Source of the DNA: an uncultured Anaerolineaceae bacterium
GTDB taxonomy: Bacteria; Chloroflexota; Dehalococcoidia; Tepidiformales; Tepidiformaceae
Direction of reading: 5' to 3'
Length of the DNA stretch: 36,538 nucleotides
Assembly (NCBI GenBank): GCA_964343095.1
Contig: CAYFHW010000001.1
Coordinates: 1-36,538 of the forward strand
Below, one piece after another: positions 1-25,958 of this stretch (its first letter is position 1; each line of letters begins with the position of its first letter). Made by a program: the position numbers and the translations under genes. The notes under the pieces were generated by a model. The model was given only the letters and a program-made list of their open reading frames with translations. It was not told the DNA's origin and did not search any database.

Positions 1-20
1 AAGTTTTTCTTTTGCATCAC

Positions 21-1040
21 TCATAAGGAAACACTTTTTGATTCAGAAGAAGCTGCCAATTCCATAGATGATCCTTTTAGCCTAGCCAACGGTATCCCAA
101 ATAGCCACATAAGTAATAGACCGACCACAGTTGTTGGAATGAAGATAACAGCATGTGCAACCAATGCATAAGCCGATGCTACCCCACTGGCAATTCCACC
201 ACTGGTAAGAACAAGACGTGCAGCCCATTCGAAAGGTCCTGTACCCCCAAAAAAAGTAGGTAAGATAATCGCTAAATTCGCAGCTGACAATAGTAATAAG
301 AAATGACCAAAGCCTAAATCAATTTTAAACCCTAGCCCTATGACGGCATAAGCAGAAGCTTCAACCGTCCATGCAATAGCGCTAAGAAAAACAACTGCTA
401 AAAAAGTTGATGAATTATGCACCGATCGAAAACCTATCAACAATGCAGACGCATGTGGCGCTAGAAGGGAACGAACCCGACGTGGTAGCTTCCAAAGGAA
501 CCAAGCAGCTACTCTTCGCGCACGTATTGGACTTGAGGTAAACCAATAGAAAAAGATGAACGCAACTGCAAAAAAAATTGCTGATACAACACCAATAATT
601 CGCAATGTGCCATCTTCAAAACCAATAAAAAGACCTGTAATTACAAACATCACAACAAGAACTCCACCATCAAAAAGTCGCTCAACTGCAATTGTGGCAA
701 TCGCACTTGCTTTGGGAATTCTCTCACGCTCCCCAAGAATCCAAGCACGCACCAATTCTCCGATTCGTGCTGGCAAAAGATTATTGGCCATGTATCCGAT
801 AATTGCATAAGGGAACAATCGTCTAGCAGAAATATTTGCAACTGGTCGCATAAGCAAAGTCCATCGAACACAACGTATCCAAAGAGAAATGAACAAAATT
901 GCAACAGCAGGAAGCATAAACAGAAAATTAGCCTCTTTAAATGCATTCCAAACATCACTCAAATCAACAAGAGTGAAAAACAAGCCAACTAATACTGCGC
1001 TAAAAACAAACCCTATCCAAATACGTAAGGAGCGAAACAT
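21..1040 (-). CDS. UPF0104 / flippase-like polytopic membrane protein (lysyl-PG synthase TM-region family, TIGR00374 type)
   Basis: 339-aa ORF that is hydrophobic throughout, with multiple predicted TM spans. It carries the family-like charged patch RCVRW...NNLLPARIGELVRAWIL. It is the last gene of the minus-strand string, 26 nt after the upstream gene. Confidence 0.7.
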   Translation of the reverse strand: MFRSLRIWIGFVFSAVLVGLFFTLVDLSDVWNAFKEANFLFMLPAVAILFISLWIRCVRWTLLMRPVANISARRLFPYAIIGYMANNLLPARIGELVRAWILGERERIPKASAIATIAVERLFDGGVLVVMFVITGLFIGFEDGTLRIIGVVSAIFFAVAFIFFYWFTSSPIRARRVAAWFLWKLPRRVRSLLAPHASALLIGFRSVHNSSTFLAVVFLSAIAWTVEASAYAVIGLGFKIDLGFGHFLLLLSAANLAIILPTFFGGTGPFEWAARLVLTSGGIASGVASAYALVAHAVIFIPTTVVGLLLMWLFGIPLARLKGSSMELAASSESKSVSL

Positions 1041-1066
1041 TACACCTGAGTGTAGCGGATCATTAA

Positions 1067-3355
1067 TTAGGGATCCGCATTCTTGGCGAACCAGGCAACA
1101 CCATCTACAGAACCCAGATCTGCAAAAGGTTCGTGATCACGCCAGAAAAAATACGAGACTAAAAACCAATTGTTACGACCAGAAGTTTTGAATATATTCG
1201 AACCAATCACTTTCCATGTTTGAATTTCCCTGAATGAATAGTACCTGCTCGTATTAGCTGGATCATTTGGATTTCGACGAAACGGTTCCTTATATGTTTC
1301 AGGAAACCACCAACGATGAGGGTATGACTCTGATGGGAAATAGTTGTCTTTTATTCCCAGACGGCTTAACTCAGAACGGATATAAGATGCATTGCTTGCA
1401 GTAGTTAAAATTACTGAATAGTCATATTTTTCGAAATCTAATCCGTCAACATGATCTCCATAATGAATTTTTCCAGGGAAATCACGGAAATACCAAACCC
1501 AAGGCCAGGCAAAGGAAGCTTTGCTGTCAACAGCTATAAAGACCTCCTGAGCATTTTGAGATTCACCTACAATACGATCTATCCTTTTATCTAATTCCTT
1601 CAAATATGGTGAGGACTGCGTATAAATAAGCAGATCCTTGGGAACATCACCACGCACAAACGTAAGACCTGTCATCGTTCGAAATGAGAAAAAGGATAAT
1701 GCAGATATTAATAAGACCACTGCCAAAAAAGGCACCGATCGAGAACCAAATTTATATATACAAAGACCAAACAAAAGGAGTGGGAAAAGAACAAACAGAA
1801 TACGCACACTCATAAACAGATCTTGTACATATACCGCTACTGGAAAGGCTACTGCCGAAATAATTGAAACAGCAAAAATTACAAATCCAACTTTCACCCA
1901 ATTTTCCTTTTTCCCAGAATCAAACCAATAACTCCAGAAGTTATAGACTGACCAAGCAGCCAATAGCGCTGCTGGTAAAGCTATATGGACAGTCAACCAA
2001 GGCATTTTTTCGCCTGCAAAGGAAAGAGCAAAAAAAACTGCAATTAACCAGAAAGACAAAAACTTCGCAAAATAATCACGACGGAAAAATGACCAAACAA
2101 GGCCTGGAAGAGCCAAGGAAAATAATAAGAACTCGTAGGGTGGAACAGTCATTAAATAATAAAACCAGGGCTGTTCTCCACGCCTGACCACTTGTTGATC
2201 TCGCCAATAGTCGAGAGATCCCCAGACCCCCGTGCAAAGACCATCAACATTAGTCCAAAAGGTGGTCATGAAAGTTGCAAAAATTACGCTTCCGAGAAGG
2301 GCACATATTAGCCAAATTTTCGGTTTCCATAATAAACCTACTGCTGCAGACAATCCCCCCACAATGAGCAAAGAAACAATAATGGGCATTCGATCACTTA
2401 CTGAACCAACACAAACAACATCCTGAGCAAGGATTCCAGAATCGACAACACCTTTTCCTATAAAAGGAATGCTTTGCAAAATCGAGACATCACGAAGCAA
2501 CGGAATACCCATTTCTAACGGATCACGAAGGAATGCAATCAGCAAAGGCAAGATAAGTGTCCCTAAAAGAACGAGTAAATCACCACTGCGTGGTAGGGCC
2601 TTCCACTCTAGTCGTGTGCGAATCTTGCCAATCAGAGGCCAAAAAACAACACACAGCCAGGCAACGGGCATTAAGGCAATCACACAAAAAACTCGCTTTT
2701 TTCGATTCATTGAGAATTTCATTTTTGCAAGATCACCAGACAATAGAGCATTTAATAGAAGTAGGAAGATCGCGGCTTCAAGATAAGCCATTTCCTTGGT
2801 GAGAAAGAGTCCTACAATCGAACCAGCAAATACTAGTAACCAGCGGTGGCGTCCTGTTGCCAAATAACGCCAGATAGCAATTACCAGGCAAAGGGTAAAA
2901 ACTGCAATGTATATGTCTCCACGAAAAAAGCGACTGTAATAGACAAGTGAAGGTGAGAAGGCAATAAAAGCCATTGCAGCAATTGTGCCCACAGTGCCCA
3001 GATGACGACGCAAAAATAGTGGGAGCGCAGTTAAAAGGATGCCAAAGAAAGCTACCGAAAGCCGGGCGGTGTAATCGCTATCCTGAAAAACAATAAATGT
3101 AAATGCTTGGACAAAGTAATAAAAAGGGCCATGAAAAACGGGGTCGTGAATGTAATGTCCCTCAAAAGCTAACTGCCAAGACCAGAATGCATGAATACTT
3201 TCATCATGATGTAAAGTAACTGAACCCAAATCCCAAAGACGCAAAATAGCCGCAGCTACAAATATTATTATGTAAATATAAACTTCCCATTTTGTAAAAC
3301 TCTTATCACTCAAATGGATATATTGCAGGCTACGTGCAGAAAGACGTGAAAACAT
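1067..3355 (-). CDS. TIGR03663-family GT-C / PMT-ArnT-like polytopic membrane protein (Agl23-like in some databases)
   Basis: 762-aa polytopic ORF. The N-terminal invariant features I recall for TIGR03663 are present: HHDESIH (DE dipeptide) and VFHGPFYYF (HGP tripeptide). It has a large C-terminal non-membrane part and lies next to a DUF2298 gene, as is typical for this family. Confidence 0.7.
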   Translation of the reverse strand: MFSRLSARSLQYIHLSDKSFTKWEVYIYIIIFVAAAILRLWDLGSVTLHHDESIHAFWSWQLAFEGHYIHDPVFHGPFYYFVQAFTFIVFQDSDYTARLSVAFFGILLTALPLFLRRHLGTVGTIAAMAFIAFSPSLVYYSRFFRGDIYIAVFTLCLVIAIWRYLATGRHRWLLVFAGSIVGLFLTKEMAYLEAAIFLLLLNALLSGDLAKMKFSMNRKKRVFCVIALMPVAWLCVVFWPLIGKIRTRLEWKALPRSGDLLVLLGTLILPLLIAFLRDPLEMGIPLLRDVSILQSIPFIGKGVVDSGILAQDVVCVGSVSDRMPIIVSLLIVGGLSAAVGLLWKPKIWLICALLGSVIFATFMTTFWTNVDGLCTGVWGSLDYWRDQQVVRRGEQPWFYYLMTVPPYEFLLFSLALPGLVWSFFRRDYFAKFLSFWLIAVFFALSFAGEKMPWLTVHIALPAALLAAWSVYNFWSYWFDSGKKENWVKVGFVIFAVSIISAVAFPVAVYVQDLFMSVRILFVLFPLLLFGLCIYKFGSRSVPFLAVVLLISALSFFSFRTMTGLTFVRGDVPKDLLIYTQSSPYLKELDKRIDRIVGESQNAQEVFIAVDSKASFAWPWVWYFRDFPGKIHYGDHVDGLDFEKYDYSVILTTASNASYIRSELSRLGIKDNYFPSESYPHRWWFPETYKEPFRRNPNDPANTSRYYSFREIQTWKVIGSNIFKTSGRNNWFLVSYFFWRDHEPFADLGSVDGVAWFAKNADP

Positions 3356-3392
3356 TACAATTAGTTTAATCTTCCCTTCATCTAAACACGCA

Positions 3393-5729
3393 TCATTCCT
3401 TCAATGGAATGCTATAAATGCGAGCCCCCAAACCTATATTATCGCCAAAAACTAGAGTTAGAATCGCATCAAAATGGAGAATAAAATTATCCGGATAACT
3501 AGCTCTCTCGAGTCCACTAACCACAAGGTAATTAACTTCCAATTCTCTCAGGATGGCCAAGACCTCTTCAGAATTAGAAGCTAGATAAATTTCGTCAACG
3601 AGATTTAAACGTCTGTTAATTTCTTCCCTTGAATTCTGTGAAGGACGCCATTGTATTTCATGTCCCGGCCAACCAATTGGCGATTGTAAACCAGTACGTG
3701 CTGCAACCCTACCAGCTAAAGTGTAATCAATTCGATGTGAAGAAATTTCGAGATCACCCTCGTTATTTCTAACCCATGTTCTCCCACTTGCCTCCACGAT
3801 AATCGAACTTTTTTTAACATTTTCCTGCAGCCACTGAACAACTTCTCGATCATCTGCATCGACATAAATCAAGCCATCAATTGTGGGACTGCCTACATTC
3901 TCATTAATACGATTAGGAATTGAGATAGCAATATACGTAAGAGAAACGATAACTAGACTCGCAACAACTACTGCAAAAACAGGCTTGAGTAACCGGTATC
4001 CCTCTAGCCTGCGAAATGCTTCAGATAGTGAAACAGCACCGACCACAGAAGACACAATCCAGGATTGGTACAGAAGTTTAAACACGGTATTCGAACGAGG
4101 ATGAATTTCTTCGAACACATCCCGAACGTAGAAGAACTCAGCGCCATAACAAAGTAGGGTTGAGAGAATCGCTAATGAAGTCAATAAAACCATCACAAAC
4201 CATTTTTTTTGCAAGAAAATAATCAACGCATAAGTGAAGCCCCACAACAAGACACCCTGAAATGCAATAGTGGACCAACCACTTGCAGTCCGAGCGATTT
4301 CAAAAATCGAACTATTCAATGCAGCAAGCCAAACAATAAAGGGAATCATCGGCATAACACCGGCAACTACAAACACACGCAAGGGCATCTTCGGTACAGA
4401 TCGTATTGCAAAAAATATCAGCGGAGTCATAGCGAGGAGAAGCGGTCCATTCAATAAAATCATTTGCTCAAGGTTGGAACCAGGACCTATGTACGGTGCT
4501 ATACCTCCGGCTTGTGTAGAAAAAGTGGCATACCAAGCCCCGTACATAGCAGCTGACAAAAACATCACAGGAACAAGCCATCCACAGATCTTTATAAAAG
4601 AACTGTAGGTGAAATCATTTTTTAAATTATGAGCTAACGCAGCAATTACAATTGCAGCATTGAATGTCACAAAATCCCAAGCATTTACGAAAGCAAGGGA
4701 GCCCATAATTAAAGCAAGCAGAAAGCCAATAATAGGATCTCTTAAATGTGTTCGGAAAGACAGGATACCTCGCGACCGCCACAAACTAGATGCCACCGCC
4801 AAACTTAAAATTACCCCAGGGATAGACATTAAATGAGGATGGAGGTCTCCTAAAAGAAAAGAAAAAGCAGGGAATTCAATAATCGTTTCAGGTATCAGTC
4901 GTGTTGCACGCCACCAAAACCAAAACTCAGTAGGATACCAAGTTGTAGAAAATGCATCTGTTAGAGAATTTAACCCTAACGTTTCTAAAAATTTATCCGG
5001 CAAATTCATGTGGATAGACAAAAATTCTATAAAGCCGGCAAGAGAACCTGTGAAAAGCAACAGTGTTATACCTAGTAAGCTGGTTGAGAAGAATGCTAAA
5101 GCTGAAAAGTTTTTCACTAGCCAGCGAAAAAGCGTAGCCACCAGTGAAAAAACTGTGGTGACACTTCCTGCAAAAGCAAGTGCAAGCGCCAAATTGTACC
5201 CAATAGATGTAGAAATATCCGTAAGCAAGATAAGTAAGCCAGCCTGAATAAAGCCACCGTAGTAATAGGAAAGACTTTCTCCTGCAAACCAAGGGTCATG
5301 TGGTGGATAACTAGGAGATTCGACAACTGCATTCAACATCATCAAATCCATAGGTTGTTCAGTGTGCGCAATCTCAGGGGTAAAGGAACGGAAAATCACG
5401 TACGCAAAAAACGCAATATTGAAAACACCAAATGTACATAACCCGAAAGGACCAGCTCTTCGAAGTACTAATACAAAATGACGATCTGTCCTAGCAATTA
5501 AAAACGATAAGACCGCAAATAAAAACAGTAGGATAGCTAGCGAACCTACTCCATTTGGGATTCCGATAACGCGAAGCAAAAACCAAGTGGCTGACAGAAT
5601 AATTAGCCCGAGAGGTATAGAAAACCCAATACCAGCATCAATAAATCGTCGGAATAAACGAACGGATAATGGAACCGTAAGAATACCGATCAATATTGCC
5701 GCTGCCCAAAAAGCTAGTACTGCTGACAT
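3393..5729 (-). CDS. DUF2298 / Chlor_Arch_YYY domain (TIGR03662) polytopic membrane protein
   Basis: 778-aa ORF. ESLSYYYGGF matches the YYYxG signature. The C-terminal soluble region (TGLQSPIGWPGHEIQWR...YLVVSGLERASYP) resembles the DUF2298 C-terminus. It starts 7 nt downstream of the ftsY stop. Confidence 0.75.
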   Translation of the reverse strand: MSAVLAFWAAAILIGILTVPLSVRLFRRFIDAGIGFSIPLGLIILSATWFLLRVIGIPNGVGSLAILLFLFAVLSFLIARTDRHFVLVLRRAGPFGLCTFGVFNIAFFAYVIFRSFTPEIAHTEQPMDLMMLNAVVESPSYPPHDPWFAGESLSYYYGGFIQAGLLILLTDISTSIGYNLALALAFAGSVTTVFSLVATLFRWLVKNFSALAFFSTSLLGITLLLFTGSLAGFIEFLSIHMNLPDKFLETLGLNSLTDAFSTTWYPTEFWFWWRATRLIPETIIEFPAFSFLLGDLHPHLMSIPGVILSLAVASSLWRSRGILSFRTHLRDPIIGFLLALIMGSLAFVNAWDFVTFNAAIVIAALAHNLKNDFTYSSFIKICGWLVPVMFLSAAMYGAWYATFSTQAGGIAPYIGPGSNLEQMILLNGPLLLAMTPLIFFAIRSVPKMPLRVFVVAGVMPMIPFIVWLAALNSSIFEIARTASGWSTIAFQGVLLWGFTYALIIFLQKKWFVMVLLTSLAILSTLLCYGAEFFYVRDVFEEIHPRSNTVFKLLYQSWIVSSVVGAVSLSEAFRRLEGYRLLKPVFAVVVASLVIVSLTYIAISIPNRINENVGSPTIDGLIYVDADDREVVQWLQENVKKSSIIVEASGRTWVRNNEGDLEISSHRIDYTLAGRVAARTGLQSPIGWPGHEIQWRPSQNSREEINRRLNLVDEIYLASNSEEVLAILRELEVNYLVVSGLERASYPDNFILHFDAILTLVFGDNIGLGARIYSIPLKE

Positions 5730-5736
5730 AAGTCAC

Positions 5737-6681
5737 TTAATTAAGGATAGCGTCAACAAAAACTTCTGGGTCAAATGGCGACAAATCCTCAAGCGATTCA
5801 CCTGTCCCAATAAGATATACGGGCACCCCTATTTCCTTTGCCACGGCGAAAGCAATTCCACCTCGAGCAGTGCCATCAAGCTTAGCAAGTATGATACCCG
5901 TAACATCTACGTATTCAGAAAAAATTTTTGCTTGCTGTAAACCATTTTGACCTGTAGTCGCATCTAAGATAAGTAAGGTTTCATGAGGTACATCCAAAAG
6001 GTTTCTCTCAATCACTCGTTTGATTTTCCCTAATTCTTCCATTAGATTGCTCTGATTATGTAAACGACCCGCTGTATCGACAATCACTGCACTTATATTG
6101 TTAGCCTTTGCGGCAGCAATCGCATCGAACGCAACAGAACTGGGGTCGGACCTATCTTGATGAGAGATAACACGGACACCAATCCGCTTTCCCCAAACTT
6201 CAATTTGTTCAACCGCTGCAGCACGGAACGTATCTGCAGCAGCTAAAACACAAGAGATACCTAAACCTTGCAGCATAAAGGCTAGCTTCGCAGTTGAAGT
6301 TGTTTTACCTGCACCATTTACGCCGACGACAAGAATAGCAAATGGATTGGGTATCTCATTTTCCGGGGAACCCCAAATAGGTACTCGACTCAAAGGGGTT
6401 TTTAAAATCGTAACTAACTCATCCCTCAAAAATAACCTTACATCAGAAGCAGACTTTATCTTTTTTTCGTGAACAGTTTTTCTAACTCTTTCAAGAATAT
6501 ATTCCGTGGTTGGAAGTCCAACATCAGCCGAAATTAATGCCTCTTCTAAATCATCCCAAAGACTGTTATCAAAATCTTGACGATTAAAAATATTTACGAG
6601 TACATCAAACCTGGAACGTGTTTTCTCTGTGGCATTTTTTGTTCGTTTTTTAACTTCGCTTGAATCGCCACGCCACCACAT
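5737..6681 (-). CDS. ftsY: Signal recognition particle receptor FtsY
   Basis: SRP54-type GTPase motifs are present: GVNGAGKTTSTAKLA (G1), DTAGRLH (G3) and AKLDGTARGG (G4/G5 region). There is a basic/acidic N-terminal A-like region. Confidence 0.95.
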   Translation of the reverse strand: MWWRGDSSEVKKRTKNATEKTRSRFDVLVNIFNRQDFDNSLWDDLEEALISADVGLPTTEYILERVRKTVHEKKIKSASDVRLFLRDELVTILKTPLSRVPIWGSPENEIPNPFAILVVGVNGAGKTTSTAKLAFMLQGLGISCVLAAADTFRAAAVEQIEVWGKRIGVRVISHQDRSDPSSVAFDAIAAAKANNISAVIVDTAGRLHNQSNLMEELGKIKRVIERNLLDVPHETLLILDATTGQNGLQQAKIFSEYVDVTGIILAKLDGTARGGIAFAVAKEIGVPVYLIGTGESLEDLSPFDPEVFVDAILN

Positions 6682-6704
6682 TTTTATAAAAACCGTTCTT
6701 GCTA

Positions 6705-9700
6705 TTACAAATTAGCAGACAACCGCATAGAAAGAGTTTTAGAAACCCCATCCCGACCCATAGAAACACCGTAGATGGCATCTGTAGCTTCAATTGTGTG
6801 ACGGTTATGCGTAACAACTAAAAATTGTGTTTTTTCAGACAGCTTCTTTAATTCACCGACAAAACGATTGACATTAGCTTCATCAAGAGATGCATCTGCT
6901 TCGTCCAAAATACACATAGGTGCAGGTTTAACCATTAGAAATGCAAATAATAAGGCCACTGCTGTAAGGGAACGTTCACCACCCGACAAAAGATTCAGCG
7001 ATCGCAAATCTTTCCCCGGAAGTTTTACCTCGATTTCAATACCGGAATCGGTTGGATCGCCAGCATTATCAAGCAATAAGCCTGCTTTACCTCCACCGAA
7101 AAAAGCAGTGAAATTATTTGAAAATGCAATATTTACTTTCTCAAATACATCCTTAAATTGCGAGCGGATCTTCTCATTTAACTCACTTATAGCTCCGTGC
7201 AGCTGCTTTTCTGTTTCCGTTAAATCATCAATTTGCGCAACAAGGAAATTGTATCGCTCTTCACTTTCAATCAAATCTTCGGATGCTTCTTGATTTACAG
7301 GTCCCAAGCGCCGAATCTGGGCACGCAAAGAATGCACTTCATCTTCAAGAGCATTCATATCCAATAGCGCACCTCCACGAACTGATTCAGAATTCTCTTC
7401 TGCGGGAGGAAGACTTCCGTCTCCTTCATTAACGACACCCGCATCGGAACCCCTTAAACCCGAACTATCGATTGGTCCCAATAGCCCAATGCCACCACTG
7501 CTTAAGGGGGTAAAACCATCACGCTCCATTTCCTCACGTAAAGAAATACGCCTTTCTGTAGCACGAGAAGCCTCTGCATCTAAAGTAAGTCGCTTTTGCT
7601 GAGTTTTTAGCAAAGCTGCTTGTGCCTCCTGATGTGAAGACCTCAATTCCCCCTCTCTATCTTCAAGATTTTTAAAACTGATCTCGTAGGGTTCTAAGCT
7701 TTCACGTAATTCTTGATACTTACTTTTTAGATCAACCAACTCCTGTTCCTTACTTACGAGGAGGACATCTATGTGTTGTACTTCAGAATTGAGCACTTCA
7801 ATCCTTGCTTCCCGATCCTTGATTCCGATGACGAGCCTATCAACGTTTTGCACATGTGTATCACTTAATCTTTTCTGCACTTCCATCTCGCTCTTGAAAT
7901 CGGCCACACGACTTACCACTTCTTCCATCTTCGAAGCCAAATTTTTATGTACTGAAACATTCTCCCTCAAATTTATCGTTAGTTCAGACAGTTTGGTTTC
8001 AATCTCACTCCGCCTGCTCTCAATTTCAGAAACGGCAACTCTGTTCTCGGTATTCTTCCTTGTGATTCGCTCTTGCTCTAAATCAAAAGCATTCAACTCA
8101 CTCAAAATAGCATCCCGGCCTTGTACACTTCTATAGTGCGCTTCCTGAGTAACTTCTCTATCGCGCCTAATATCATCCAATCGAGTATGTGCGCTATCCA
8201 ATTGGCCTGTCGTTTCATCTACCTGAATATTTACACGCTCAAGAGCTAATCGAGCACTTTCAACTTGACTATTTGAACCTTGATCACGAACTTGTAGCTC
8301 TTTTATTAAATCAACCAACTCATGCCGGTCACGCTCACGTGCAATTGCTCCAGCTGCCGGGGTATCCTTACTGCTTGAGCCACCAATTAGCGTTCCATTC
8401 GGTTCAACAATCACGCCGTCTGTCGTGACAATTAATCCTCCAAACGCACGTTTAGCCATCTTAAAAGCTGTTTCGATATCTGAAACAACTATTACACGGC
8501 CTAATATTGTCTCAACGAAGGGTCTAACCTCATCATCAAAGTCAATTAATCGGCTTGCAACTCCCAAAACACCACGTTCTTTAGCAAGATTCAAAGGAAT
8601 GGTTTTCTTAAAAGTATCGACAGGTAAAAAATGTACTCGTCCTAAAGTATTCTTCTGGAGAAGTTCGATAGCACGGATTGCCTCATCTCGATTCTCTATA
8701 AGTACAGAATGAAATCTTCTCTCCAAAACTGCTGATATGGCCGTTTCCAAAGCAAAAGGTACTCGCAAATGGTGCACTAAAATTCCAAGAACACCAGAGA
8801 GGTCGCGACCTTCCTCACTAAATTGCAAAACAGCCTCGGGGCCTGCAGCCAGATCTGTATGTTCAGTATGTATATGATTCAATGTCGCAAAACGACCTTC
8901 TAAAGCATCCAATTCACGCAAAATGATATTGCGTTCAGCTTCATATTTTCGTAACTCCTCTTGCACACGTATAAATCTTGAACGAGCTTCATTAACTGCT
9001 GCTTGGGCATTTGTAACTTCTTGCTCACGTAAATTAATATTTTCCGTAATCGCTTCTTCTTTCTGCCAACGGTCTTTGACAAGCTTTTCCGCTTCTGAAA
9101 GGCGAGCTGTAATTTCCGCTCTGCCTTCTGTGGATCGCCCATTTTCATCTGCTGTAATTTCAGATGTAAATTCTTCATGCTTTTCATTCAGCCAAGTGAG
9201 TTCTGCTTTTAATTCATTCTCTCGACGACGTAAAGAATTTACAGTTTCATCAATTTCATCAAATTCACTTTTTGCCTGATTAAGATCCCTTTCTAATAAT
9301 CCAAGCCGATCATCACTATCCTCAAGCTCCTTCGGTACATCTTGCATACTCAAGGCATCATAATCAGCTTTAAAAACAGTTAACTCGCTTTCAATTTCCT
9401 TAATGCGATCGACCACAGTAACTTTGCGTTCACGAGCATAAGAAAGGTCATTTTCAAATTTAGCTAAATTTACCTGGGCATTAGTACGCTCTTGTTCACG
9501 AGTTGTAAAACTCTCTCGATGACCTTTTATCTGATCGCCAATCGTAGTCAGTGCATCAGCAAATTCACGTACTAATTTTTCTGCAGAATCCTCCTCTGCA
9601 AGGCACTGATCTAACGCAGCATTGGCACTTACAATAGAATTGTGAGCTTCATCCCAACGGACACCATGGTAATCAGATAACAAGCTGTTCAACCGCTCAG

Positions 9701-10355
9701 TTAAATCCTTGTATTTAGTTGAGCGATCCGCCTGCCTCCTTAATCGAGTCAAATTCGGCTTTAATTCATCTGCTATAAGTTGTAACCTCGACAAATTCTC
9801 TGCAGTATCACTTAAACGTTTGTTGGCATCAGAAATCCGCAATCGGTACTGTTTAACACCCGCTACATCATCTACAAGTGAACGTCGCTCCTGCGCAGTC
9901 ATTGTTAAGAAATGATCAACTGCACCCTGATTTAAAAAAGAATATGAATTCTGGCCAAGATTCACTTTTTGCAAGAGTTCGAGGAGCTCACGATGCAAAA
10001 TCCGCGTCCCATTTAATAAATACTCACTACTCCCATCACGATAAGCACGCCTTGAAATCTCCACCTCCTTAAAATCTAGAGGAAATGCACCATCAGAATT
10101 ATCGATTGCGATAACAACCTCTGCCATACCAAACCTTGACTTAGCAGAACCTGCAGAGTGAATGACATCATCCTGTTTCTTTGCACGTATCAAACGGGAA
10201 TTTTGTTCACCAAGAACCCAGCGGACAGAATCTGCAACATTACTTTTTCCTGAACCATTTGGCCCAACGATCGCTGTAACACCTGGATCAAATTCAAACG
10301 TCGTCTCGTTAGCAAAGCTTTTAAAACCGGTGATCGTCAATTTCCTTATAAACAT
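6705..10355 (-). CDS. smc: Chromosome partition protein Smc
   Basis: 1216 aa. It has an N-terminal Walker A (GPNGSGKSN), long coiled coils, a hinge (GVLGILVHHL...VVSDIETA), the C-terminal signature LSGGERSL and Walker B (CILDEADASLD). Confidence 0.95.
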   Translation of the reverse strand: MFIRKLTITGFKSFANETTFEFDPGVTAIVGPNGSGKSNVADSVRWVLGEQNSRLIRAKKQDDVIHSAGSAKSRFGMAEVVIAIDNSDGAFPLDFKEVEISRRAYRDGSSEYLLNGTRILHRELLELLQKVNLGQNSYSFLNQGAVDHFLTMTAQERRSLVDDVAGVKQYRLRISDANKRLSDTAENLSRLQLIADELKPNLTRLRRQADRSTKYKDLTERLNSLLSDYHGVRWDEAHNSIVSANAALDQCLAEEDSAEKLVREFADALTTIGDQIKGHRESFTTREQERTNAQVNLAKFENDLSYARERKVTVVDRIKEIESELTVFKADYDALSMQDVPKELEDSDDRLGLLERDLNQAKSEFDEIDETVNSLRRRENELKAELTWLNEKHEEFTSEITADENGRSTEGRAEITARLSEAEKLVKDRWQKEEAITENINLREQEVTNAQAAVNEARSRFIRVQEELRKYEAERNIILRELDALEGRFATLNHIHTEHTDLAAGPEAVLQFSEEGRDLSGVLGILVHHLRVPFALETAISAVLERRFHSVLIENRDEAIRAIELLQKNTLGRVHFLPVDTFKKTIPLNLAKERGVLGVASRLIDFDDEVRPFVETILGRVIVVSDIETAFKMAKRAFGGLIVTTDGVIVEPNGTLIGGSSSKDTPAAGAIARERDRHELVDLIKELQVRDQGSNSQVESARLALERVNIQVDETTGQLDSAHTRLDDIRRDREVTQEAHYRSVQGRDAILSELNAFDLEQERITRKNTENRVAVSEIESRRSEIETKLSELTINLRENVSVHKNLASKMEEVVSRVADFKSEMEVQKRLSDTHVQNVDRLVIGIKDREARIEVLNSEVQHIDVLLVSKEQELVDLKSKYQELRESLEPYEISFKNLEDREGELRSSHQEAQAALLKTQQKRLTLDAEASRATERRISLREEMERDGFTPLSSGGIGLLGPIDSSGLRGSDAGVVNEGDGSLPPAEENSESVRGGALLDMNALEDEVHSLRAQIRRLGPVNQEASEDLIESEERYNFLVAQIDDLTETEKQLHGAISELNEKIRSQFKDVFEKVNIAFSNNFTAFFGGGKAGLLLDNAGDPTDSGIEIEVKLPGKDLRSLNLLSGGERSLTAVALLFAFLMVKPAPMCILDEADASLDEANVNRFVGELKKLSEKTQFLVVTHNRHTIEATDAIYGVSMGRDGVSKTLSMRLSANL

Positions 10356-11116
10356 CAGGCTCTTGCACTACTCCTATGGCGTTTTTGTTTCTGAGCACTA
10401 TTATCCACAGACTTCTTATTCGGATTATTACAATCTGCGTTGCCAGACTCTTGGAAACTTTGACAAGCTTTCTCTGCAGCACGCATTTGCGCCTCACGTT
10501 TGTTGCCACCATAAGCACGAGCTAACAAATTATTGTCCGCATAAACTTCGATGCAGAATCTCTTCTCAGGAGAATCTACTTGTTCCGAAACAGTGACGTA
10601 TTCTGGCGGGCTATGCCAACGAGCTTGGCACAATTGCTGTAAAGCTGACTTCGGATCGACACCTGGCCCATTCTTCACAACCTGCTGGATCTCCAATTTT
10701 AAAGTTCTTCGAATAAAAACCTCTGTAGAACGAAGCCCCTTGCCAATGTAAACAGCACCGACTACAGCTTCAAAAACTCCTGCAAGATTTCGAGTACGCG
10801 AACGGCCTCCCGCTGCTTCTTCCCCACGACCTAAAACAAGTCTACCTCCTAGCTCGAGTCGCTCCGCAACTGAAGCAAGGGCATCCCCGCGTACAATCTC
10901 CGCACGCATTTGCGTCAAATCACCCTCAGCAGCATTTGGACAAGCAACAAATAGCTCGCGTGCTATAACTGCACCCAATAAAGCATCACCTAGGAACTCA
11001 AGTCTTTCATTATTAGGTCCACCATCTCTGTCTTCGTTCGTATACGAAGCATGGGTAAGCGCCTCCCTCCGAAGATCATCGGAAAGGCTATCAAAAACCT
11101 GGAGCCCAGTATTCAC
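10355..11116 (-). CDS. rnc: Ribonuclease III
   Basis: It has the RNase III signature ERLEFLGDALLG and a C-terminal dsRBD (PKSALQQLCQ...GNKREAQMRAAEKA) followed by a basic tail. The ORF track extends to 11248. I place the start at the in-frame GTG at 11116, which lies 13 nt downstream of the AAGGAG Shine-Dalgarno motif and gives a normal N-terminal length. The TGA stop overlaps the smc ATG (TGATG). Confidence 0.85.
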   Translation of the reverse strand: MNTGLQVFDSLSDDLRREALTHASYTNEDRDGGPNNERLEFLGDALLGAVIARELFVACPNAAEGDLTQMRAEIVRGDALASVAERLELGGRLVLGRGEEAAGGRSRTRNLAGVFEAVVGAVYIGKGLRSTEVFIRRTLKLEIQQVVKNGPGVDPKSALQQLCQARWHSPPEYVTVSEQVDSPEKRFCIEVYADNNLLARAYGGNKREAQMRAAEKACQSFQESGNADCNNPNKKSVDNSAQKQKRHRSSARA

Positions 11117-11180
11117 TAAAACGTGACGTCTCCTTAATAAAACAATTCTACAAAATTGTAAGAAATGTTTAGATGCCTTA

Positions 11181-11432
11181 GTGAATGCTATTACTGATTT
11201 CCTGAAAGTCAAGAGATCAGTTAGTCTGCAGAAAGTGAGCGCAAACATTTGTGTAGTATGTAATGAAGAAGTTCCCGCCCTTATGCAGTCCGTTTGCGGA
11301 ACATGCGGTAGATTATTTCACCTCAATCAACGCAAAGATATGAATGTAAAAGAATGTGGGGAAGTCTGGCTAGATGAAGAACGGATGGGCTTAATGTTTA
11401 GGTGTGAAAATTGTATAAAAAGCGAAGCATAA
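11181..11432 (+). CDS. Small Cys-rich zinc-finger protein (CxxC-x11-CxxC-x4-H-x11-C-x15-CxxC)
   Basis: 83-aa ORF from GTG 11181; an alternative in-frame GTG lies at 11235. Seven Cys and one His sit in a regular metal-binding spacing. It is divergent from rnc and is followed 12 nt later by the next gene. The exact start is uncertain. Confidence 0.5.
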   Translation: MNAITDFLKVKRSVSLQKVSANICVVCNEEVPALMQSVCGTCGRLFHLNQRKDMNVKECGEVWLDEERMGLMFRCENCIKSEA

Positions 11433-11444
11433 AGGAGGACATCA

Positions 11445-11753
11445 ATGAGCCCATCAGCCAGTAAACGTAAGCGACGTGCAAGAGCAAAACAGATTGACAA
11501 ATATCAAAATGAACCAACTGTTTCACCAATAAGCACTCCAACCTTACCAATCTGGAATTGGCGTACATTTCCGGTAATTGCGGCTTTCGGTTTCGGTGGA
11601 TTCATAGGCATGATCTTGGGGGCAGAAACCGGAATCATCGCAACAATTGGCTTATTCGGATTTGTAGGTATCCTTGGATTTTCACTATCACGTCTTGCAA
11701 TAAGATTTTTAATGGCAAAGGGTCTAATAAAACCGCAACCACAAAAAAAATAA
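11445..11753 (+). CDS. Small membrane protein with a basic N-terminal tail and two Gly-rich TM helices
   Basis: 102-aa ORF with an ATG preceded by AAAGGAGGA 4 nt upstream. It has a KRKRRARAK tail followed by FPVIAAFGFGGFIGMILG and IIATIGLFGFVGILGF. Confidence 0.6.
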   Translation: MSPSASKRKRRARAKQIDKYQNEPTVSPISTPTLPIWNWRTFPVIAAFGFGGFIGMILGAETGIIATIGLFGFVGILGFSLSRLAIRFLMAKGLIKPQPQKK

Positions 11754-11762
11754 GGAATATAT

Positions 11763-12752
11763 ATGTTTGAAGGAGTGGTGCTTCATGAAGGTGGAGTACA
11801 TGAACATACAGAACAAGCTGTAGTTGCAGAACAACATGGCTTTGATTCGGTATGGGTAACCGAGGTGCATGGGCCAGATGTTGTCACAGTTTTAACTGCA
11901 ACCAGTGCCAAAACAAAAAGAGTTACTCTAGGTACAGGCATTGCACCGATCTATATACGTGATCCATACCTCACAGCCACAACCTTTGGGGCTTTGCATG
12001 AATTTTCAGGCGGAAGAATGATCGCAGGATTCGGTGTAAGCACACCTGCAATTGTAACAAACTGGCATGGACAAAATTGGTCCAAACCACTAGCGAGTAT
12101 GCGGGAATATGTAGAACTTTTCCGTAAATTAACTGCTGGGGAACGTTTAAAACATAACGGCCTATTCCAAACAGTTGGGGGGCCAGCACGTCCAATAAGT
12201 GAACCAGCAATTCCAGTTTTTATAGGTGCCTTAGGAAATCAAATGCTTGAACTTGCAGGTGAAATTGCTGACGGTATCATTTTGAATTTTCCAACTGTCT
12301 CTGCTTCAAAAAAAGCGATTCAAGCAATAGAGAAGGGACTGCACAAAGTAAAGCGTGAGCGAAAAGAAATAAGAATTACCGCCTTCTTGCGCACTGTTAT
12401 ACACAATGATTACGAAATTGCAGCAGCGCCTTTAAAACAAGAATTACTCAATTACTTTATGGCACCAGTGTACGAGCAATTGTTTCGTGAAGATGGATAT
12501 GAGGAAGACTGTGATCTGTTTCTCCAGCGCTGGAACGCAAGGGAAAGAGAACAAGCTATCAATGGCATCTCAGAACGAATGATTCGTGATCACGCAATAG
12601 TCGGCCAAACACCAGAAGAATGTAGAGACATCGCAGCTGCATTTAAGGATGCAGGTGTGGATGAATTGATCTTATACCCGATTGCCCCAAGCGATGCTCC
12701 TAATGAGCAACAAGCGATTTTACAAACAACTAGGTTCCTTTCAAACCAGTGA
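11763..12752 (+). CDS. Luciferase-like monooxygenase (LLM) class, probably F420-dependent oxidoreductase
   Basis: 329 aa with LLM-family features throughout, including an N-terminus EQHGFDSVWVTEVHG and GIILNFP. Confidence 0.8.
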   Translation: MFEGVVLHEGGVHEHTEQAVVAEQHGFDSVWVTEVHGPDVVTVLTATSAKTKRVTLGTGIAPIYIRDPYLTATTFGALHEFSGGRMIAGFGVSTPAIVTNWHGQNWSKPLASMREYVELFRKLTAGERLKHNGLFQTVGGPARPISEPAIPVFIGALGNQMLELAGEIADGIILNFPTVSASKKAIQAIEKGLHKVKRERKEIRITAFLRTVIHNDYEIAAAPLKQELLNYFMAPVYEQLFREDGYEEDCDLFLQRWNAREREQAINGISERMIRDHAIVGQTPEECRDIAAAFKDAGVDELILYPIAPSDAPNEQQAILQTTRFLSNQ

Positions 12753-13389
12753 GGCTCTCTCCTGTGCAAACTTCCCAGGCAATAGCTAAGAAAATGTGAG
12801 CCCACATCGAACCAGGGCAGTAAGTAATCACACGATAACCTTCGAAATCCCCGAAGTATCGTCTAAACACATCCTGATCATCCCGAGCTCTATGTAACTC
12901 CAAGACATCCATAAATGCCTGCTTTTCAGCTTTCCTCGGACCATCTGAAGAACAAGCTAATGGCGCAGACCAAAGCACAGTGTCCAAAATGACAAGAACT
13001 GAATCCAATCCGGCACGCACTAAATCTGCATCTTCAGGGGAAATAGTTAAGCTTTTGACTGAATTAACTACAATCCCCTCAACGGCATCCCGCCAAATTA
13101 AAGTTTTTCGATCAAGGGAACGTTCTTCAGATAATTTTTTATAAGCCGTCCGTACATTATCTACGTCTAAAATTTCTGGCAAGCAATCAATAACTGTATC
13201 GATACGGCCAACAAATTTAGGTTCGAACCTTGAGATAAGAATCGTATCAACAGGGCAAGATAGCGCTTTCCCCTTATCTTGCTTGATACCTACCACACGT
13301 CTTTCAAGAGGTGGCCCAGACACTTTTTCATCGAACCAACTATTTAAACGCTTTGTTAATGAGTCCAAAGAAGAAAAATTTTCAGGCAA
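12730..13389 (-). CDS. Hypothetical protein (no family recognised)
   Basis: 219-aa ORF with protein-like composition. It has only a TTG start at 13389, which overlaps the pncA stop by 8 nt, and there is no internal ATG until late in the ORF. Its 3' end overlaps the convergent LLM gene by 23 nt. Confidence 0.45.
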   Translation of the reverse strand: MPENFSSLDSLTKRLNSWFDEKVSGPPLERRVVGIKQDKGKALSCPVDTILISRFEPKFVGRIDTVIDCLPEILDVDNVRTAYKKLSEERSLDRKTLIWRDAVEGIVVNSVKSLTISPEDADLVRAGLDSVLVILDTVLWSAPLACSSDGPRKAEKQAFMDVLELHRARDDQDVFRRYFGDFEGYRVITYCPGSMWAHIFLAIAWEVCTGESLTGLKGT

Positions 13390-13960
13390 GTTCTACCCCA
13401 TTTTCCTCTAAATCCTTAAGAATCTGTACTTGTACGTCTCTATTGGTAGAACATACACAGCTTGAAACGACAGCAACTTCAAATCCTTTTGATAAAGCCT
13501 CTATAGCCGAATCACGTATACAAAAATCTGTACTTAAACCCACAAAAACAATTTTTTGGATATTTCGGTCACGTAGTAGCGTCTCCATCAACGTTGGTTT
13601 AACAACTCCTGATTCAAGGTCTCGAACGGAAAAACAGGAAAAGGCATCTTCACCATCGATACCTTTTCTCAATACATCGCCAGATATTTCTAAATCCGGA
13701 TGTATTTGTGCTCCCCAAGAATTACGCACACAATGCTCACCAGCACGACCATTATGTGATGCAAAATGCTTCGTCGTTGGTGGATGCCAATCCTGGGTAT
13801 AAATCACTTCACCACCACTTACATGACAAAGATTTATTTCAGCATTGATGTGCGAGATAATTTCTGAAGCCCCCGGAATATAATGTGCCCCTTGTGGGTC
13901 AGAAAAATCATTCTGGAAATCTATTACCAAAAGAGCGACGTACTTATTGTATTGAATCAT
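13382..13960 (-). CDS. pncA: Nicotinamidase / pyrazinamidase (isochorismatase family)
   Basis: The catalytic and metal motifs are present: LLVIDFQNDF (Asp), QDWHPPTTKHF (metal site) and VGLSTDFCI (catalytic Cys). Confidence 0.85.
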   Translation of the reverse strand: MIQYNKYVALLVIDFQNDFSDPQGAHYIPGASEIISHINAEINLCHVSGGEVIYTQDWHPPTTKHFASHNGRAGEHCVRNSWGAQIHPDLEISGDVLRKGIDGEDAFSCFSVRDLESGVVKPTLMETLLRDRNIQKIVFVGLSTDFCIRDSAIEALSKGFEVAVVSSCVCSTNRDVQVQILKDLEENGVELA

Positions 13961-17162: not shown

Positions 17163-17236
17163 TGGAGCGGGCGAAGGGAATCGAACCCTCGTCTCAACCT
17201 TGGGAAGGTCGCGTTCTGCCATTGAACCACGCCCGC
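17163..17236 (-). tRNA. tRNA-Gly (anticodon CCC), CCA encoded
   Basis: Hand-folded cloverleaf: acceptor GCGGGCG/CGCCCGC, D arm GTTC-AATGGCA-GAAC, anticodon arm CGACC-TTCCCAA-GGTTG, 4-nt variable loop, T arm GAGGG-TTCGATT-CCCTT, then TCCA. It is near-identical in layout to E. coli glyU. Confidence 0.9.
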
Positions 17237-21047: not shown

Positions 21048-21121
<74 letters not shown>

Positions 21122-21261: not shown

Positions 21262-22338
21262 TTGAGTTCAATCAACGTTGCTATTATTGGTGTAGGAAAC
21301 TGTGCTTCCTCTCTAGTTCAGGGCTTAGAGTTTTACAAAGGTGTGGAAGCTAGTGAGGAGATCCCTGGGCTCATGCACCCCGTACTAGGGGATTACCACA
21401 TTAGAGACATTAATGTCGCAGTTGCTATTGATGTAGACAAAGATAAAGTAGGGAAAGATCTCTCGCAGGCAGTTTTCGCTGGGCAGAATAATACTCAACG
21501 ATTCACCGACGTTCCCCATGCAGGCGTCGAAGTTGCACGTGGAATGACACATGATGGACTAGGCCAGTACTTAAGCGACGTTATAGAGAAAGCACCTGGC
21601 GGAACTGCAGATATCGTCCGCCTCCTGAGAGATAACAAAATAGACGTTGTAATTAATTACCTGCCAGTTGGATCGGAAGAAGCGACAAAATGGTATGTCG
21701 AGCAAGCACTTCAAGCTGGTTGCGCATTCATAAATTGTATTCCCGTCTTCATTGCACGAGATGAGAATGGATATTGGCCTAAGAGATTCGAGGAAGAAGG
21801 TTTACCAATCATTGGCGATGACATTAAAAGCCAAGTTGGTGCGACGATCGTTCATCGTACACTCGCAAGGCTTTTTGAAGATCGGGGTGTTCAGCTTGAT
21901 CGAACCTATCAGCTAAATTTTGGTGGCAACACTGACTTTATGAATATGCTTGAGCGTTCGCGCTTAGAATCAAAAAAGATATCTAAGACGTCCGCAGTTA
22001 CCAGCCAGTTAGAGCACGAACTACCGGCTACAGACGTACATGTGGGCCCTAGTGACTACGTCCCGTGGCTCGAAGATAGAAAGTGGTGCCATATTCGTAT
22101 GGAAGGAACTACCTTTGGCAATGTGCCCTTGAACCTGGAATTGAAGTTAGAGGTTTGGGACAGTCCAAATAGTGCTGGAGTTGTTATTGATGCAATACGC
22201 TGTGCAAAACTCGGACTTGATCGTGGCCTCAAAGGCCCTCTATTAGCACCAAGTGCTTATTTTATGAAATCACCCCCAGTCCAATACTATGATGATCAAG
22301 CGCGAGATATGGTGGAAGAGTTTATTGTCGAAGGATAA
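21262..22338 (+). CDS. ino1: myo-Inositol-1-phosphate (inositol-3-phosphate) synthase, bacterial/archaeal type
   Basis: The start codon is TTG. There are strong matches to the mycobacterial/archaeal Ino1 blocks as I recall them: [88 protein letters not shown]. Confidence 0.9.
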
Positions 22339-23217
22339 ATGCAACACTGGCTCTGGCTAATAGGTACGCACCTAATACACCGTTTACCGGTTCAATTTCT
22401 CTATAAAGTAGCCAGACTCATTGGGAAGATTGTTTTTGTATTTTGGATCCGAGGGCGCCAAAATATGCTCGCAAACTATGCACACGTACTGCCTGAACTT
22501 AAAGAGTCTGAACGGCGAACAATAGCGCGAAAATCGCTCGAGAATTATTACTGTTACGTAGTAGATTTTGCGCGCTTGCCGAATCTTTCACCTGAATTAA
22601 TAGAATCAATACTTGTAAAAGATGAGCACTTTGAAGCACTCGACCATGCACTTGAAAAAGGGCGTGGCGTAATAGTAGTTTGCATGCATTTTGGTAATTG
22701 GGATTTGGGTGCAAGTAGCGCAGCGCTAAAAGGCTACCCCATATCAGTTATGGCTGAAACATTTTCTGACAAGAACCTTGACAAGATGATCGTAGGTGCA
22801 CGGGAAAAATTGGGCCTTAAAGTTATAAAAATTGAAAGCGCAGCCCCTTCAATAATTCGAGACCTCCGCAAAAATAGACTTCTAGCGATTTTGCTTGATA
22901 GACCAATGCAAGATGGTGAGGGTGTTCACGTAGAATTTTTTGGCAAAGATGCCATAGTGCCAGCAGGACCTGCAAGACTTGCTTTAAGAACAGGGGCTGC
23001 CGTTGCGCCAGTCGCTTTCCCAAAACTTCAAACAAATGGTTTAGGAATTTCCGCTCTTACGGCTTTCGACGTAAACGTGGGGCAAGAATCCGGAGAAAAC
23101 GATGAGGATGCGGTACAACGACTAACTCAAGCAATTATGAACGAACATGAAAAATTCATTCGTCTTCACCCAACCCAGTGGTACATGTTTCGTCGGTTTT
23201 GGCCTACAGACCAATGA
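22339..23217 (+). CDS. HtrB/LpxL-family lipid acyltransferase (PatA-like PIM acyltransferase candidate)
   Basis: 292 aa with an N-terminal membrane-associating helix, the HFGNWD (Hx4D) catalytic motif and the family C-terminus HPTQWYMFRRFW. The start directly abuts the ino1 stop. Confidence 0.8.
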   Translation: MQHWLWLIGTHLIHRLPVQFLYKVARLIGKIVFVFWIRGRQNMLANYAHVLPELKESERRTIARKSLENYYCYVVDFARLPNLSPELIESILVKDEHFEALDHALEKGRGVIVVCMHFGNWDLGASSAALKGYPISVMAETFSDKNLDKMIVGAREKLGLKVIKIESAAPSIIRDLRKNRLLAILLDRPMQDGEGVHVEFFGKDAIVPAGPARLALRTGAAVAPVAFPKLQTNGLGISALTAFDVNVGQESGENDEDAVQRLTQAIMNEHEKFIRLHPTQWYMFRRFWPTDQ

Positions 23218-25952: not shown

Positions 25953-25958
25953 GGCCTA

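Follow-up and report, generated by a model that had tools for sequence, protein, structure and literature searches.

A gene block behind ftsY in Dehalococcoidia encodes two GT-C-fold membrane proteins and may serve extracytoplasmic glycosylation of the cell envelope

The contig CAYFHW010000001.1 of an uncultured Anaerolineaceae bacterium (assembly GCA_964343095.1; Tepidiformaceae in the GTDB lineage) was analyzed over 36,538 nucleotides (nt), and this whole stretch is referred to here as the window. In bases 1-11248, the list of open reading frames (ORFs) gives a tightly packed, collinear string of genes on the minus strand, rnc-smc-ftsY-DUF2298-TIGR03663-UPF0104, and the start of a flavoprotein gene follows at the window edge. 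Comparison with related loci extends this string to a block, rnc-smc-ftsY-DUF2298-(degenerate paralogue)-Agl23-type-UPF0104-PRK07233, that most of the sampled Dehalococcoidia genomes share. We propose, with moderate confidence, that the products of the block glycosylate the cell envelope outside the cytoplasm, with lipid-linked sugars as donors. The features of the block in the window are the following, in order of coordinates.

1..24, minus strand: start (8 codons, MSDAKEKL) of the fourth gene of the module, for a PRK07233-family flavoprotein; the full gene is found in the related loci L001 and L002.
21..1040, minus strand: stand-alone UPF0104/LPG_synthase_TM protein (MprF-type flippase-domain family), 339 amino acids (aa); by PF03706 and TIGR00374.
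1067..3355, minus strand: TIGR03663/Agl23-type, PMT-like protein of the predicted glycosyltransferase-C (GT-C) fold, 762 aa; by hidden Markov model (HMM), AlphaFold2 (AF2) model and Foldseek.
3113..3139, minus strand: VFHGPFYYF, the HGP motif of the Agl23-type protein; by translation and invariant columns.
3191..3211, minus strand: HHDESIH, the DE motif of the same protein; by translation and invariant columns.
3393..5729, minus strand: DUF2298/TIGR03662 (Chlor_Arch_YYY) polytopic membrane protein, 778 aa; by HMM, AF2 model and Foldseek.
5250..5279, minus strand: ESLSYYYGGF, the YYYxG signature of the DUF2298 protein; by translation and conserved columns.
5737..6681, minus strand: ftsY, receptor of the signal recognition particle (SRP), 314 aa; TIGR00064, 344 bits.
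6705..10355, minus strand: smc, chromosome segregation ATPase; TIGR02168, 783 bits.
10355..11248, minus strand: rnc, RNase III, first gene of the block and also found upstream in related loci; TIGR02191, 206.4 bits.

The ORFs confirm what an earlier note on this DNA, made from the sequence alone, had described: three large membrane proteins behind ftsY on the same strand, with gaps of 7 nt (from the ftsY stop to the DUF2298 start), 37 nt and 26 nt. The three upstream genes score above the curated cut-offs of their families (260.7 bits for TIGR00064, 567 bits for TIGR02168 and 166 bits for TIGR02191). No terminator-like or good promoter-like sites were found at the junctions of the module genes, and the scan as a whole gave fewer sites than shuffled controls. 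This is compatible with a single transcript and proof of nothing, and co-transcription of the module with ftsY is plausible. Rfam and tRNA scans of bases 1-11800 returned no match. The plus strand of bases 1-6000 has a strong excess of A over T, because the coding strand of very hydrophobic proteins is T-rich.

The 778-aa protein encoded next to ftsY matches PF10060 (DUF2298) with 287.6 bits (cut-off 27.8) and TIGR03662 with 411.9 bits (cut-off 300.25), the latter match covering residues 3-752. Its YYYxG signature, to which the earlier note had drawn attention, is an exact translation and is conserved in homologues. Over the 50 DUF2298 homologues used for scoring invariance, Y155, Y157 and G159 do not vary and Y156 is at least 90% conserved (S154-Y-Y-Y-G-G159). 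The overall identity in this set, and in the set of 45 homologues used for the Agl23-type protein, is only ~40-48%. From hydropathy and charge, the signature is located in a loop of residues 114-179 after the fourth transmembrane segment (TM4). The loop is acidic and poor in K/R, and also carries the invariant E124 and D145 and the near-invariant D128. Further along the protein, residues 686-695 form a GWxGHExQWR motif. An exhaustive HMM search for DUF2298 found 8,080 representatives of clusters at 50% identity with an expectation value (E) of 0.001 or below and 3,677 at E≤1e-30, including giants of 2,000-2,700 aa.

The 762-aa protein matches TIGR03663, for which the NCBIfam product name is 'flippase activity-associated protein Agl23', with 236.1 bits (cut-off 126.25); its PMT_2 match is borderline (27.1 bits vs 26.1). 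Both of its previously noted motifs are present as exact translations. In the 45 Agl23-type homologues, D51 and E52 of the DE motif and H75, G76 and P77 of the HGP motif are invariant, as are R39, R98 and R116. An N-terminal DE dipeptide, an HGP tripeptide and conserved Arg residues are the traits given in the description of the TIGR03663 family. D51/E52 lie ~10 residues past TM1; by hydropathy and charge analysis, their loop spans residues 41-96 and contains 6 D/E and no K/R. Most Agl23-type orthologues are ~1050 aa in length, ~300 aa longer than the window protein, with a C-terminal six-bladed β-propeller of the NHL/SGL type (orthologues P0003-P0120). The window protein is without the NHL propeller and ends cleanly 26 nt before the next gene; a minority of relatives, e.g. 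P0031, are built likewise. It is noted that its C-terminal soluble domain contains a near-invariant 'HRWWFPETYK' (residues 680-689; window 1316-1345, minus strand), which by sequence recalls the WWDYG of oligosaccharyltransferases.

AF2 models of the two large proteins were obtained with a 45-sequence alignment for the Agl23-type protein and a 50-sequence alignment for DUF2298. The mean predicted local distance difference test (pLDDT) and predicted template modeling (pTM) scores are 87.6 and 0.90 for the Agl23-type model and 90.2 and 0.93 for the DUF2298 model. When these models were searched with Foldseek against the Protein Data Bank (PDB), every match at probability ≥0.8 was a GT-C enzyme for both. 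According to the models, both large proteins have the GT-C fold, in support of the two GT-C-like proteins suggested in the earlier note. At probability 1.00, the Agl23-type model matches only GT-C enzymes (AglB, STT3A/B, ArnT, ALG12, ALG9, PglB, Pmt1/2/4 and EmbA/B/C), with TM-scores on target length of 0.53-0.55 for ArnT and 0.62 for ALG12. MurJ and other transporters have Foldseek probabilities of at most 0.3 against this model, MurJ having 0.1. The DUF2298 model matches DPY19 C-mannosyltransferase, STT3A, AftA, AglB and ALG12 at probability 1.00. Its C-terminal soluble α/β domain of ~175 aa matches the C-terminal globular domain of AglB (3vu0) with probability 1.00 and a TM-score on target length of 0.56, but with E 0.24. 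Searches of the PDB by sequence and by profile were run for DUF2298, for the N-terminal 260 aa of the Agl23-type protein and for a TM-only profile. They gave no useful match, only chance TIM matches (E≥0.025) or matches of the NHL propeller from orthologues. A profile-profile comparison of the two families detected no homology (probability 1.4%), and the two large proteins are therefore not recent paralogues.

The catalytic carboxylates of GT-C enzymes are located in the first outer loop. Both large proteins of the window have a conserved acidic loop, predicted to be the first outer loop, as well as a C-terminal soluble domain. By the positive-inside rule, the conserved acidic loops would face the outside of the cell, and D51/E52 in the Agl23-type protein and E124/D128/D145 in DUF2298 can potentially play a catalytic role.

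Among solved GT-C enzymes, STT3/AglB/PglB head the Foldseek list of the Agl23-type protein; for DUF2298 they rank within the first four distinct matches, and here the likeness extends to the C-terminal domain of AglB. However, there is no WWDYG in either large protein and no STT3 match in Pfam or NCBIfam, and the TM-scores are just 0.3-0.4. In PMT, an acidic DE pair is located in the first luminal loop. The Agl23-type protein shares with PMT (GT39) and TMTC the GT-C fold and a DE pair in a predicted outer loop. Its PMT_2/PMT matches reach 27 bits in the window and 38-47 bits in orthologues, and relatives carry an extra outer protein-binding domain, which is NHL here and MIR or TPR in PMT/TMTC. 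In contrast to PMT, the window protein has no MIR match, only the borderline PMT_2 score and no sequence match to solved PMTs, and AglB/STT3/ArnT outrank PMT in Foldseek. The Agl23-type protein thus resembles a PMT-type GT-C but is not a member of GT39.

The 339-aa protein matches LPG_synthase_TM (PF03706) with 160.3 bits (cut-off 33.4), residues 7-307 aligning with profile positions 1-302 of 302, and TIGR00374 with 79.4 bits (cut-off 43.2). No match was found against PDB sequences. The full-length HMM match agrees with the placement of the third protein in UPF0104, the family of the MprF flippase domain, and every family named for the trio (TIGR03662, TIGR03663, DUF2298 and LPG_synthase_TM) scores above its curated cut-off. 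LPG_synthase_TM is the only domain found in this protein by Pfam. It has no aminoacyl-phosphatidylglycerol synthase domain (DUF2156) and hence is not MprF proper. In MprF, gpgF and hexF, the flipping of lipids or glycolipids is attributed to this domain family; UPF0104 genes are the presumed glycolipid flippases in gpgSDF and hexSDF, although flipping is unproven even in gpgSDF. Unlike in those systems, no GT4 or deacetylase gene is adjacent to the window gene.

The last 24 minus-strand bases of the window, ATGAGTGATGCAAAAGAAAAACTT, encode MSDAKEKL, and the ATG overlaps the TGA stop of the UPF0104 gene as ATGA. Two marine-metagenome contigs, L001 and L002, in which the Agl23-type protein is 93% identical, have at this position a gene for a 440-aa flavoprotein that starts with MSDSNEQL and has the same ATGA overlap (L001:7107-8429). 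The L001 flavoprotein scores 457.4 bits against NF005560/PRK07233 (cut-off 252), an equivalog with a product name of just 'hypothetical protein'; matches to HpnE (71 bits), PPOX (56 bits) and CrtI (47 bits) are below their cut-offs. Its nearest solved relatives are a plant phytoene desaturase, the Methanosarcina structural-genomics oxidoreductase 3KA7 and PPOX. Judged from its sequence, the fourth gene encodes an FAD-dependent oxidoreductase of the CrtI/HpnE/PPOX superfamily. The label of protoporphyrinogen oxidase (PPOX) given by JGI was rejected, the TIGR00562 score being 56 bits vs 97.85 and the match being limited to the FAD-binding N-terminus. A role as polyprenol or dolichol reductase would be pure speculation, and a literature search on PRK07233/3KA7 and archaeal polyprenol reductase returned nothing specific. 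The genes after the flavoprotein in L001 encode NuoE-like and NuoF-like proteins and are followed by mutS and mutL. It should be mentioned that two genes with a mutual 4-nt overlap usually trail the flavoprotein gene in L001 (8459-10836) and most related loci: one is NuoE-like (2Fe-2S), and the other is NuoF-like and long (628 aa), with additional ferredoxin-like segments. Their products could be electron-transfer partners of the flavoprotein, or the arrangement could be mere synteny.

To compare the neighborhood across genomes, the TIGR03663 alignment was scanned over one-genome-per-species contigs, which gave 583 relatives. The best 80 of the 583 loci were analyzed by placing ten query proteins on them with tblastn, and the denominators below are the loci with enough flank. 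Nearly all of these 80 loci are labelled Chloroflexota, mostly Dehalococcoidia including Tepidiformales; a few have other phylum labels (L008, Hyphomicrobiales; L045, Acidobacteriota). DUF2298 is immediately upstream of the TIGR03663 gene on the same strand in 60/68 loci, UPF0104 is downstream in 53/66, and the full trio is collinear in 47/58 species-level loci. The three-way co-occurrence predicted in the earlier note is thus found in Chloroflexota; the descriptions of the two families already give TIGR03662 and TIGR03663 as a pair. The attachment to rnc-smc-ftsY is also borne out, as the module directly follows ftsY in 50/62 loci. The idea of a self-contained trio does not hold, since the PRK07233 flavoprotein gene is translationally coupled to the UPF0104 gene through the overlap and is conserved (downstream in 50/65 loci; as a collinear quartet in 45/58), and since most relatives add a degenerate TIGR03663 paralogue. 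The conserved order is seen in marine and terrestrial lineages alike, and in three complete or near-complete genomes gene calls show 4-nt stop/start overlaps between successive genes. The median identity of the three membrane proteins is only 31-35%, going down to ~28-35% across collinear genomes.

These data also bear on the possibility that the block is a synteny of two or three unrelated functions, namely a glycosylation pair of DUF2298 and the Agl23-type protein, a membrane-lipid unit of UPF0104 and the flavoprotein (with or without the NuoE/NuoF-like proteins), and rnc-smc-ftsY housekeeping. In Anaerolineae and Caldilineae loci (e.g. L064 and L083), the DUF2298/TIGR03663 pair stands without ftsY, UPF0104 or the flavoprotein. 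The ATGA overlap joins UPF0104 and the flavoprotein as a pair of their own. The flavoprotein, with a median identity of 47% and 60-70% among close relatives, is conserved far better than the GT-C proteins (31-34%) and often has the NuoE/NuoF-like genes next to it. However, 45 of 58 genomes retain the order and strand, the genes being closely spaced or overlapping throughout, although their proteins share only 28-35% identity; this goes beyond usual neutral synteny at such divergence. There is also an archaeal precedent for UPF0104 beside PMT/STT3-like genes (PMC5898192). We therefore regard a block of unrelated functions as quite unlikely. The persistence of the GT-C pair without the rest in Anaerolineae and Caldilineae implies that the pair is the old core and that the rest is an addition at the level of Dehalococcoidia.

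Loci of the Tepidiformales type have an extra gene of 541-605 aa, without a Pfam match, between the DUF2298 and Agl23-type genes; the window has the 37-nt gap at this place. The coordinates of the extra gene in four related loci are as follows.

L003:8364-10004: degenerate Agl23-type paralogue.
L064:8071-9888: degenerate Agl23-type paralogue.
L084:8368-9993: degenerate Agl23-type paralogue.
L085:12820-14478: degenerate Agl23-type paralogue.

Over the N-terminal 190 residues of the window Agl23-type protein, the copy from Anaerolineales shows 30% identity (E 2e-17). The DE motif is changed to EE in the Anaerolineales copy and to AE in the Tepidiformaceae copy, and HGP is lost. Because of this N-terminal identity together with the altered DE and the lost HGP, the extra gene is considered to be a degenerate Agl23 paralogue, and its product could be a partner without catalytic activity. 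This paralogue has been lost from the window. Gene fusions connect the families as well. Locus L064 (Anaerolineales; 52-4305) has a 1417-aa PMT_2/PMT::DUF2298 fusion adjoining a second DUF2298 gene, the degenerate paralogue and an NHL-bearing Agl23-type gene. The two giants that were scanned are P0384 (2434 aa), a PMT/PMT_2::2xDUF2298 fusion, and P0392 (2713 aa), a 2xDUF2298::TPR fusion. The PMT-like::DUF2298 fusions argue that PMT-like GT-C proteins and DUF2298 act together.

Based on these observations, we infer the following course of glycosylation, including its topology, donor type, direction of flipping, acceptor and flavoprotein substrate and the co-transcription with ftsY. A polyprenyl-phosphate sugar or a short lipid-linked glycan would be made on the cytoplasmic face by an enzyme (GT2) encoded elsewhere. 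UPF0104 and/or the Agl23-type protein would move this donor to the outer leaflet, where both GT-C-fold enzymes would transfer the sugar to an acceptor on the outer face. The tightly coupled flavoprotein would probably modify a hydrophobic, isoprenoid-like lipid of the system. A flipped lipid-phosphate sugar donor used by an outer-face GT-C enzyme is also the logic of ArnT/ArnE-F and of the mycobacterial PimE/Emb/Aft systems, to which the TM-score of ArnT given above adds a likeness in structure. In contrast, those systems have another flippase family and other acceptors (lipid A, arabinan, phosphatidylinositol mannosides), with no relationship at the sequence level. The NHL and TPR add-ons in relatives resemble the acceptor-binding MIR/TPR domains of PMT/TMTC, which favors a protein or glycan acceptor and points towards envelope or S-layer proteins as acceptors more likely than lipids. 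The Dehalococcoidia are S-layered monoderms; Tepidiformales have retained peptidoglycan, whereas the marine radiation and Dehalococcoidales have lost it (PMC10284905). Since the module occurs in terrestrial Tepidiformales as well as in marine metagenome-assembled genomes, a function in peptidoglycan is unlikely.

An archaeal parallel to this arrangement is the neighborhood of arCOG00899 (UPF0104) with arCOG00563 (PMT/STT3-like) and an AglD-like GT2, for which all UPF0104 proteins have been predicted to be glycosylation flippases (Makarova et al. 2015, PMC5898192). It has in common with the window a stand-alone UPF0104 gene beside a PMT/STT3-like GT-C gene, and its predicted function is glycosylation of the S-layer or of proteins. 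The likeness is by description, and the window differs in having no GT2 partner and in having a second GT-C (DUF2298), the flavoprotein and rnc-smc-ftsY.

The earlier note had considered both TIGR03662 and TIGR03663 to be without a defined biochemical function. This still stands for TIGR03662/DUF2298. It no longer wholly holds for TIGR03663: purified Agl23 of Haloarcula hispanica, a member of this family, was found in 2024 to move M5GN2- and M3GN2-PP-lipid across liposome membranes independently of ATP; it also rescues a yeast rft1 deletion and is linked by genetics to the use of dolichyl phosphate (Dol-P)-hexose (PMC11182771). According to the account given there of earlier work, Agl23 had been proposed as the flippase for Dol-P-hexose in the completion of N-/O-glycans (Lu et al. 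2020, as cited in PMC11182771). The window protein is like the H. hispanica Agl22/Agl23 system in passing the TIGR03663 cut-off and in having DE and HGP, traits of a family that is linked to how Dol-P-hexose and lipid-linked glycans are handled at the outer face. It is unlike Agl23 in being bacterial, in having an extra C-terminal soluble domain of ~200 aa and in its pairing with DUF2298, UPF0104 and the flavoprotein. It has no adjacent Agl22-like Dol-P-hexose synthase, and the relation to Agl23 is through the family HMM only.

The flipping by purified Agl23, together with the mention of flippase activity in the NCBIfam name, argues for an Agl23-type protein that is a dedicated ATP-independent flippase or scramblase and not a transferase, with DUF2298 as the sole transferase and UPF0104 flipping another lipid. 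However, the Agl23-type fold is GT-C and no known flippase fold, as the MurJ probability of 0.1 illustrates. A transferase with an acceptor site would be expected to have traits such as the invariant DE and HGP of the predicted first outer loop, a conserved soluble domain at the C-terminus and, in orthologues, an NHL propeller, and the window protein, assigned by the family HMM, is only a distant bacterial relative of Agl23. A dedicated flippase is therefore unlikely in our estimate. By analogy with Agl23, the flippase role within the glycosylation system proposed here may nevertheless belong to the TIGR03663 protein instead of, or besides, UPF0104.

Several points weigh against the proposed function in envelope glycosylation. 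The only activity found by experiment in the TIGR03663 family is flipping and not transfer. The literature searched contains no functional or biochemical study of any DUF2298 member, and a search on TIGR03662, TIGR03663 and the YYY domain gave no specific discussion. The likeness of the two large proteins to solved GT-C enzymes is at the level of the fold only, with TM-scores of 0.3-0.6 and no PDB sequence match even with profiles, and the conserved acidic residues are candidates for a catalytic role. Pfam annotation, as far as it covers the window and four related loci (L001, L003, L084 and L085), shows no gene for a polyprenyl-phosphate-sugar synthase (GT2), and the donor would therefore have to be made elsewhere. 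The GT-C pair is found alone outside Dehalococcoidia, which means that the four genes need not be one pathway. Finally, the best 80 of the 583 loci are the top-scoring ones and hence skewed towards the kin of the query.

A more specific form of the envelope glycosylation reading can be given, although we hold it to be improbable. DUF2298 would be an STT3/AglB-like glycosyl- or oligosaccharyltransferase in an archaeal-style protein glycosylation machine, with the Agl23-type GT-C, an MprF-type flippase and a carrier-tailoring flavoprotein, coupled to SRP/FtsY secretion. If this were true, the machine, with a dolichol-like carrier, would be a bacterial counterpart of the eukaryotic pairing of oligosaccharyltransferase and translocon, coupled to SRP/FtsY genetically and perhaps physically. 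While the families themselves were already catalogued, the GT-C fold assignments from models, the operon architecture with ftsY and the flavoprotein, the degenerate paralogue and the fusions are new here. Oceans, sediments and contaminated aquifers harbor Dehalococcoidia in abundance, and the S-layered envelope of these organisms is archaea-like and uncommon for bacteria. The construction of this envelope is nearly unexplored, and the operon is class-wide in most genomes sampled and probably co-expressed with housekeeping genes. Finding the target of glycosylation would give a function to DUF2298, a family of ~8,000 clusters at 50% identity with no studied member. The same work would help to decide if an Agl23-type protein flips, transfers or does both, and it would give experimental access to how this class builds its envelope, Tepidiforma being cultivable.

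A second gene cluster in the window is relevant to the choice of acceptor.

21262-26546, plus strand: phosphatidylinositol mannoside (PIM)-like cluster of ino1, two PatA/HtrB-like acyltransferases, a PHP-domain hydrolase (possibly a phosphatidylinositol phosphate (PIP) phosphatase), a GT4 and a PIP-synthase-like CDP-alcohol transferase; by NCBIfam, below cut-off.

In Actinobacteria, GT-C enzymes elongate PIMs. The module could accordingly elongate the acylated phosphatidylinositol glycolipid of this cluster outside the cell by PimE-like GT-C steps, as in mycobacterial PIM and lipomannan, with the UPF0104 protein flipping the glycolipid. The best NCBIfam matches in the cluster are PIM acyltransferase, PIP synthase and INO1, and the place of UPF0104 proteins as candidate glycolipid flippases in gpgSDF and hexSDF would fit. 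However, all of these PIM-like matches are below equivalog cut-offs, and the cluster lies 15 kb from the module on the opposite strand with unrelated genes between. In none of 83 related loci does any of its six genes lie 10 kb or less to either side of the TIGR03663 gene, so that the coupling between module and inositol glycolipid that the earlier note had envisaged has no support from synteny. The NHL/TPR add-ons also make a lipid a less fitting acceptor than a protein or a glycan. Elongation of this glycolipid by the module is thus very unlikely.

Other features of the window lie outside the block. Upstream of rnc, the genes for a luciferase-like monooxygenase and an isochorismatase-family protein (11763-13960) are syntenic with a Tepidiformaceae genome (L085:1477-3646). 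This synteny agrees with the Tepidiformaceae label of the closest DUF2298 cluster (92% identity). A tRNA-Gly(CCC) is located at 17163-17236 on the minus strand and a tRNA-Arg(TCT) at 21048-21121 on the plus strand, just upstream of the ino1 cluster. Further downstream, the ORFs of a β-ketoacyl synthase (31955-33199) and RecJ (33093-34886) overlap by ~107 nt (33093-33199), and the RecJ start is probably further downstream.

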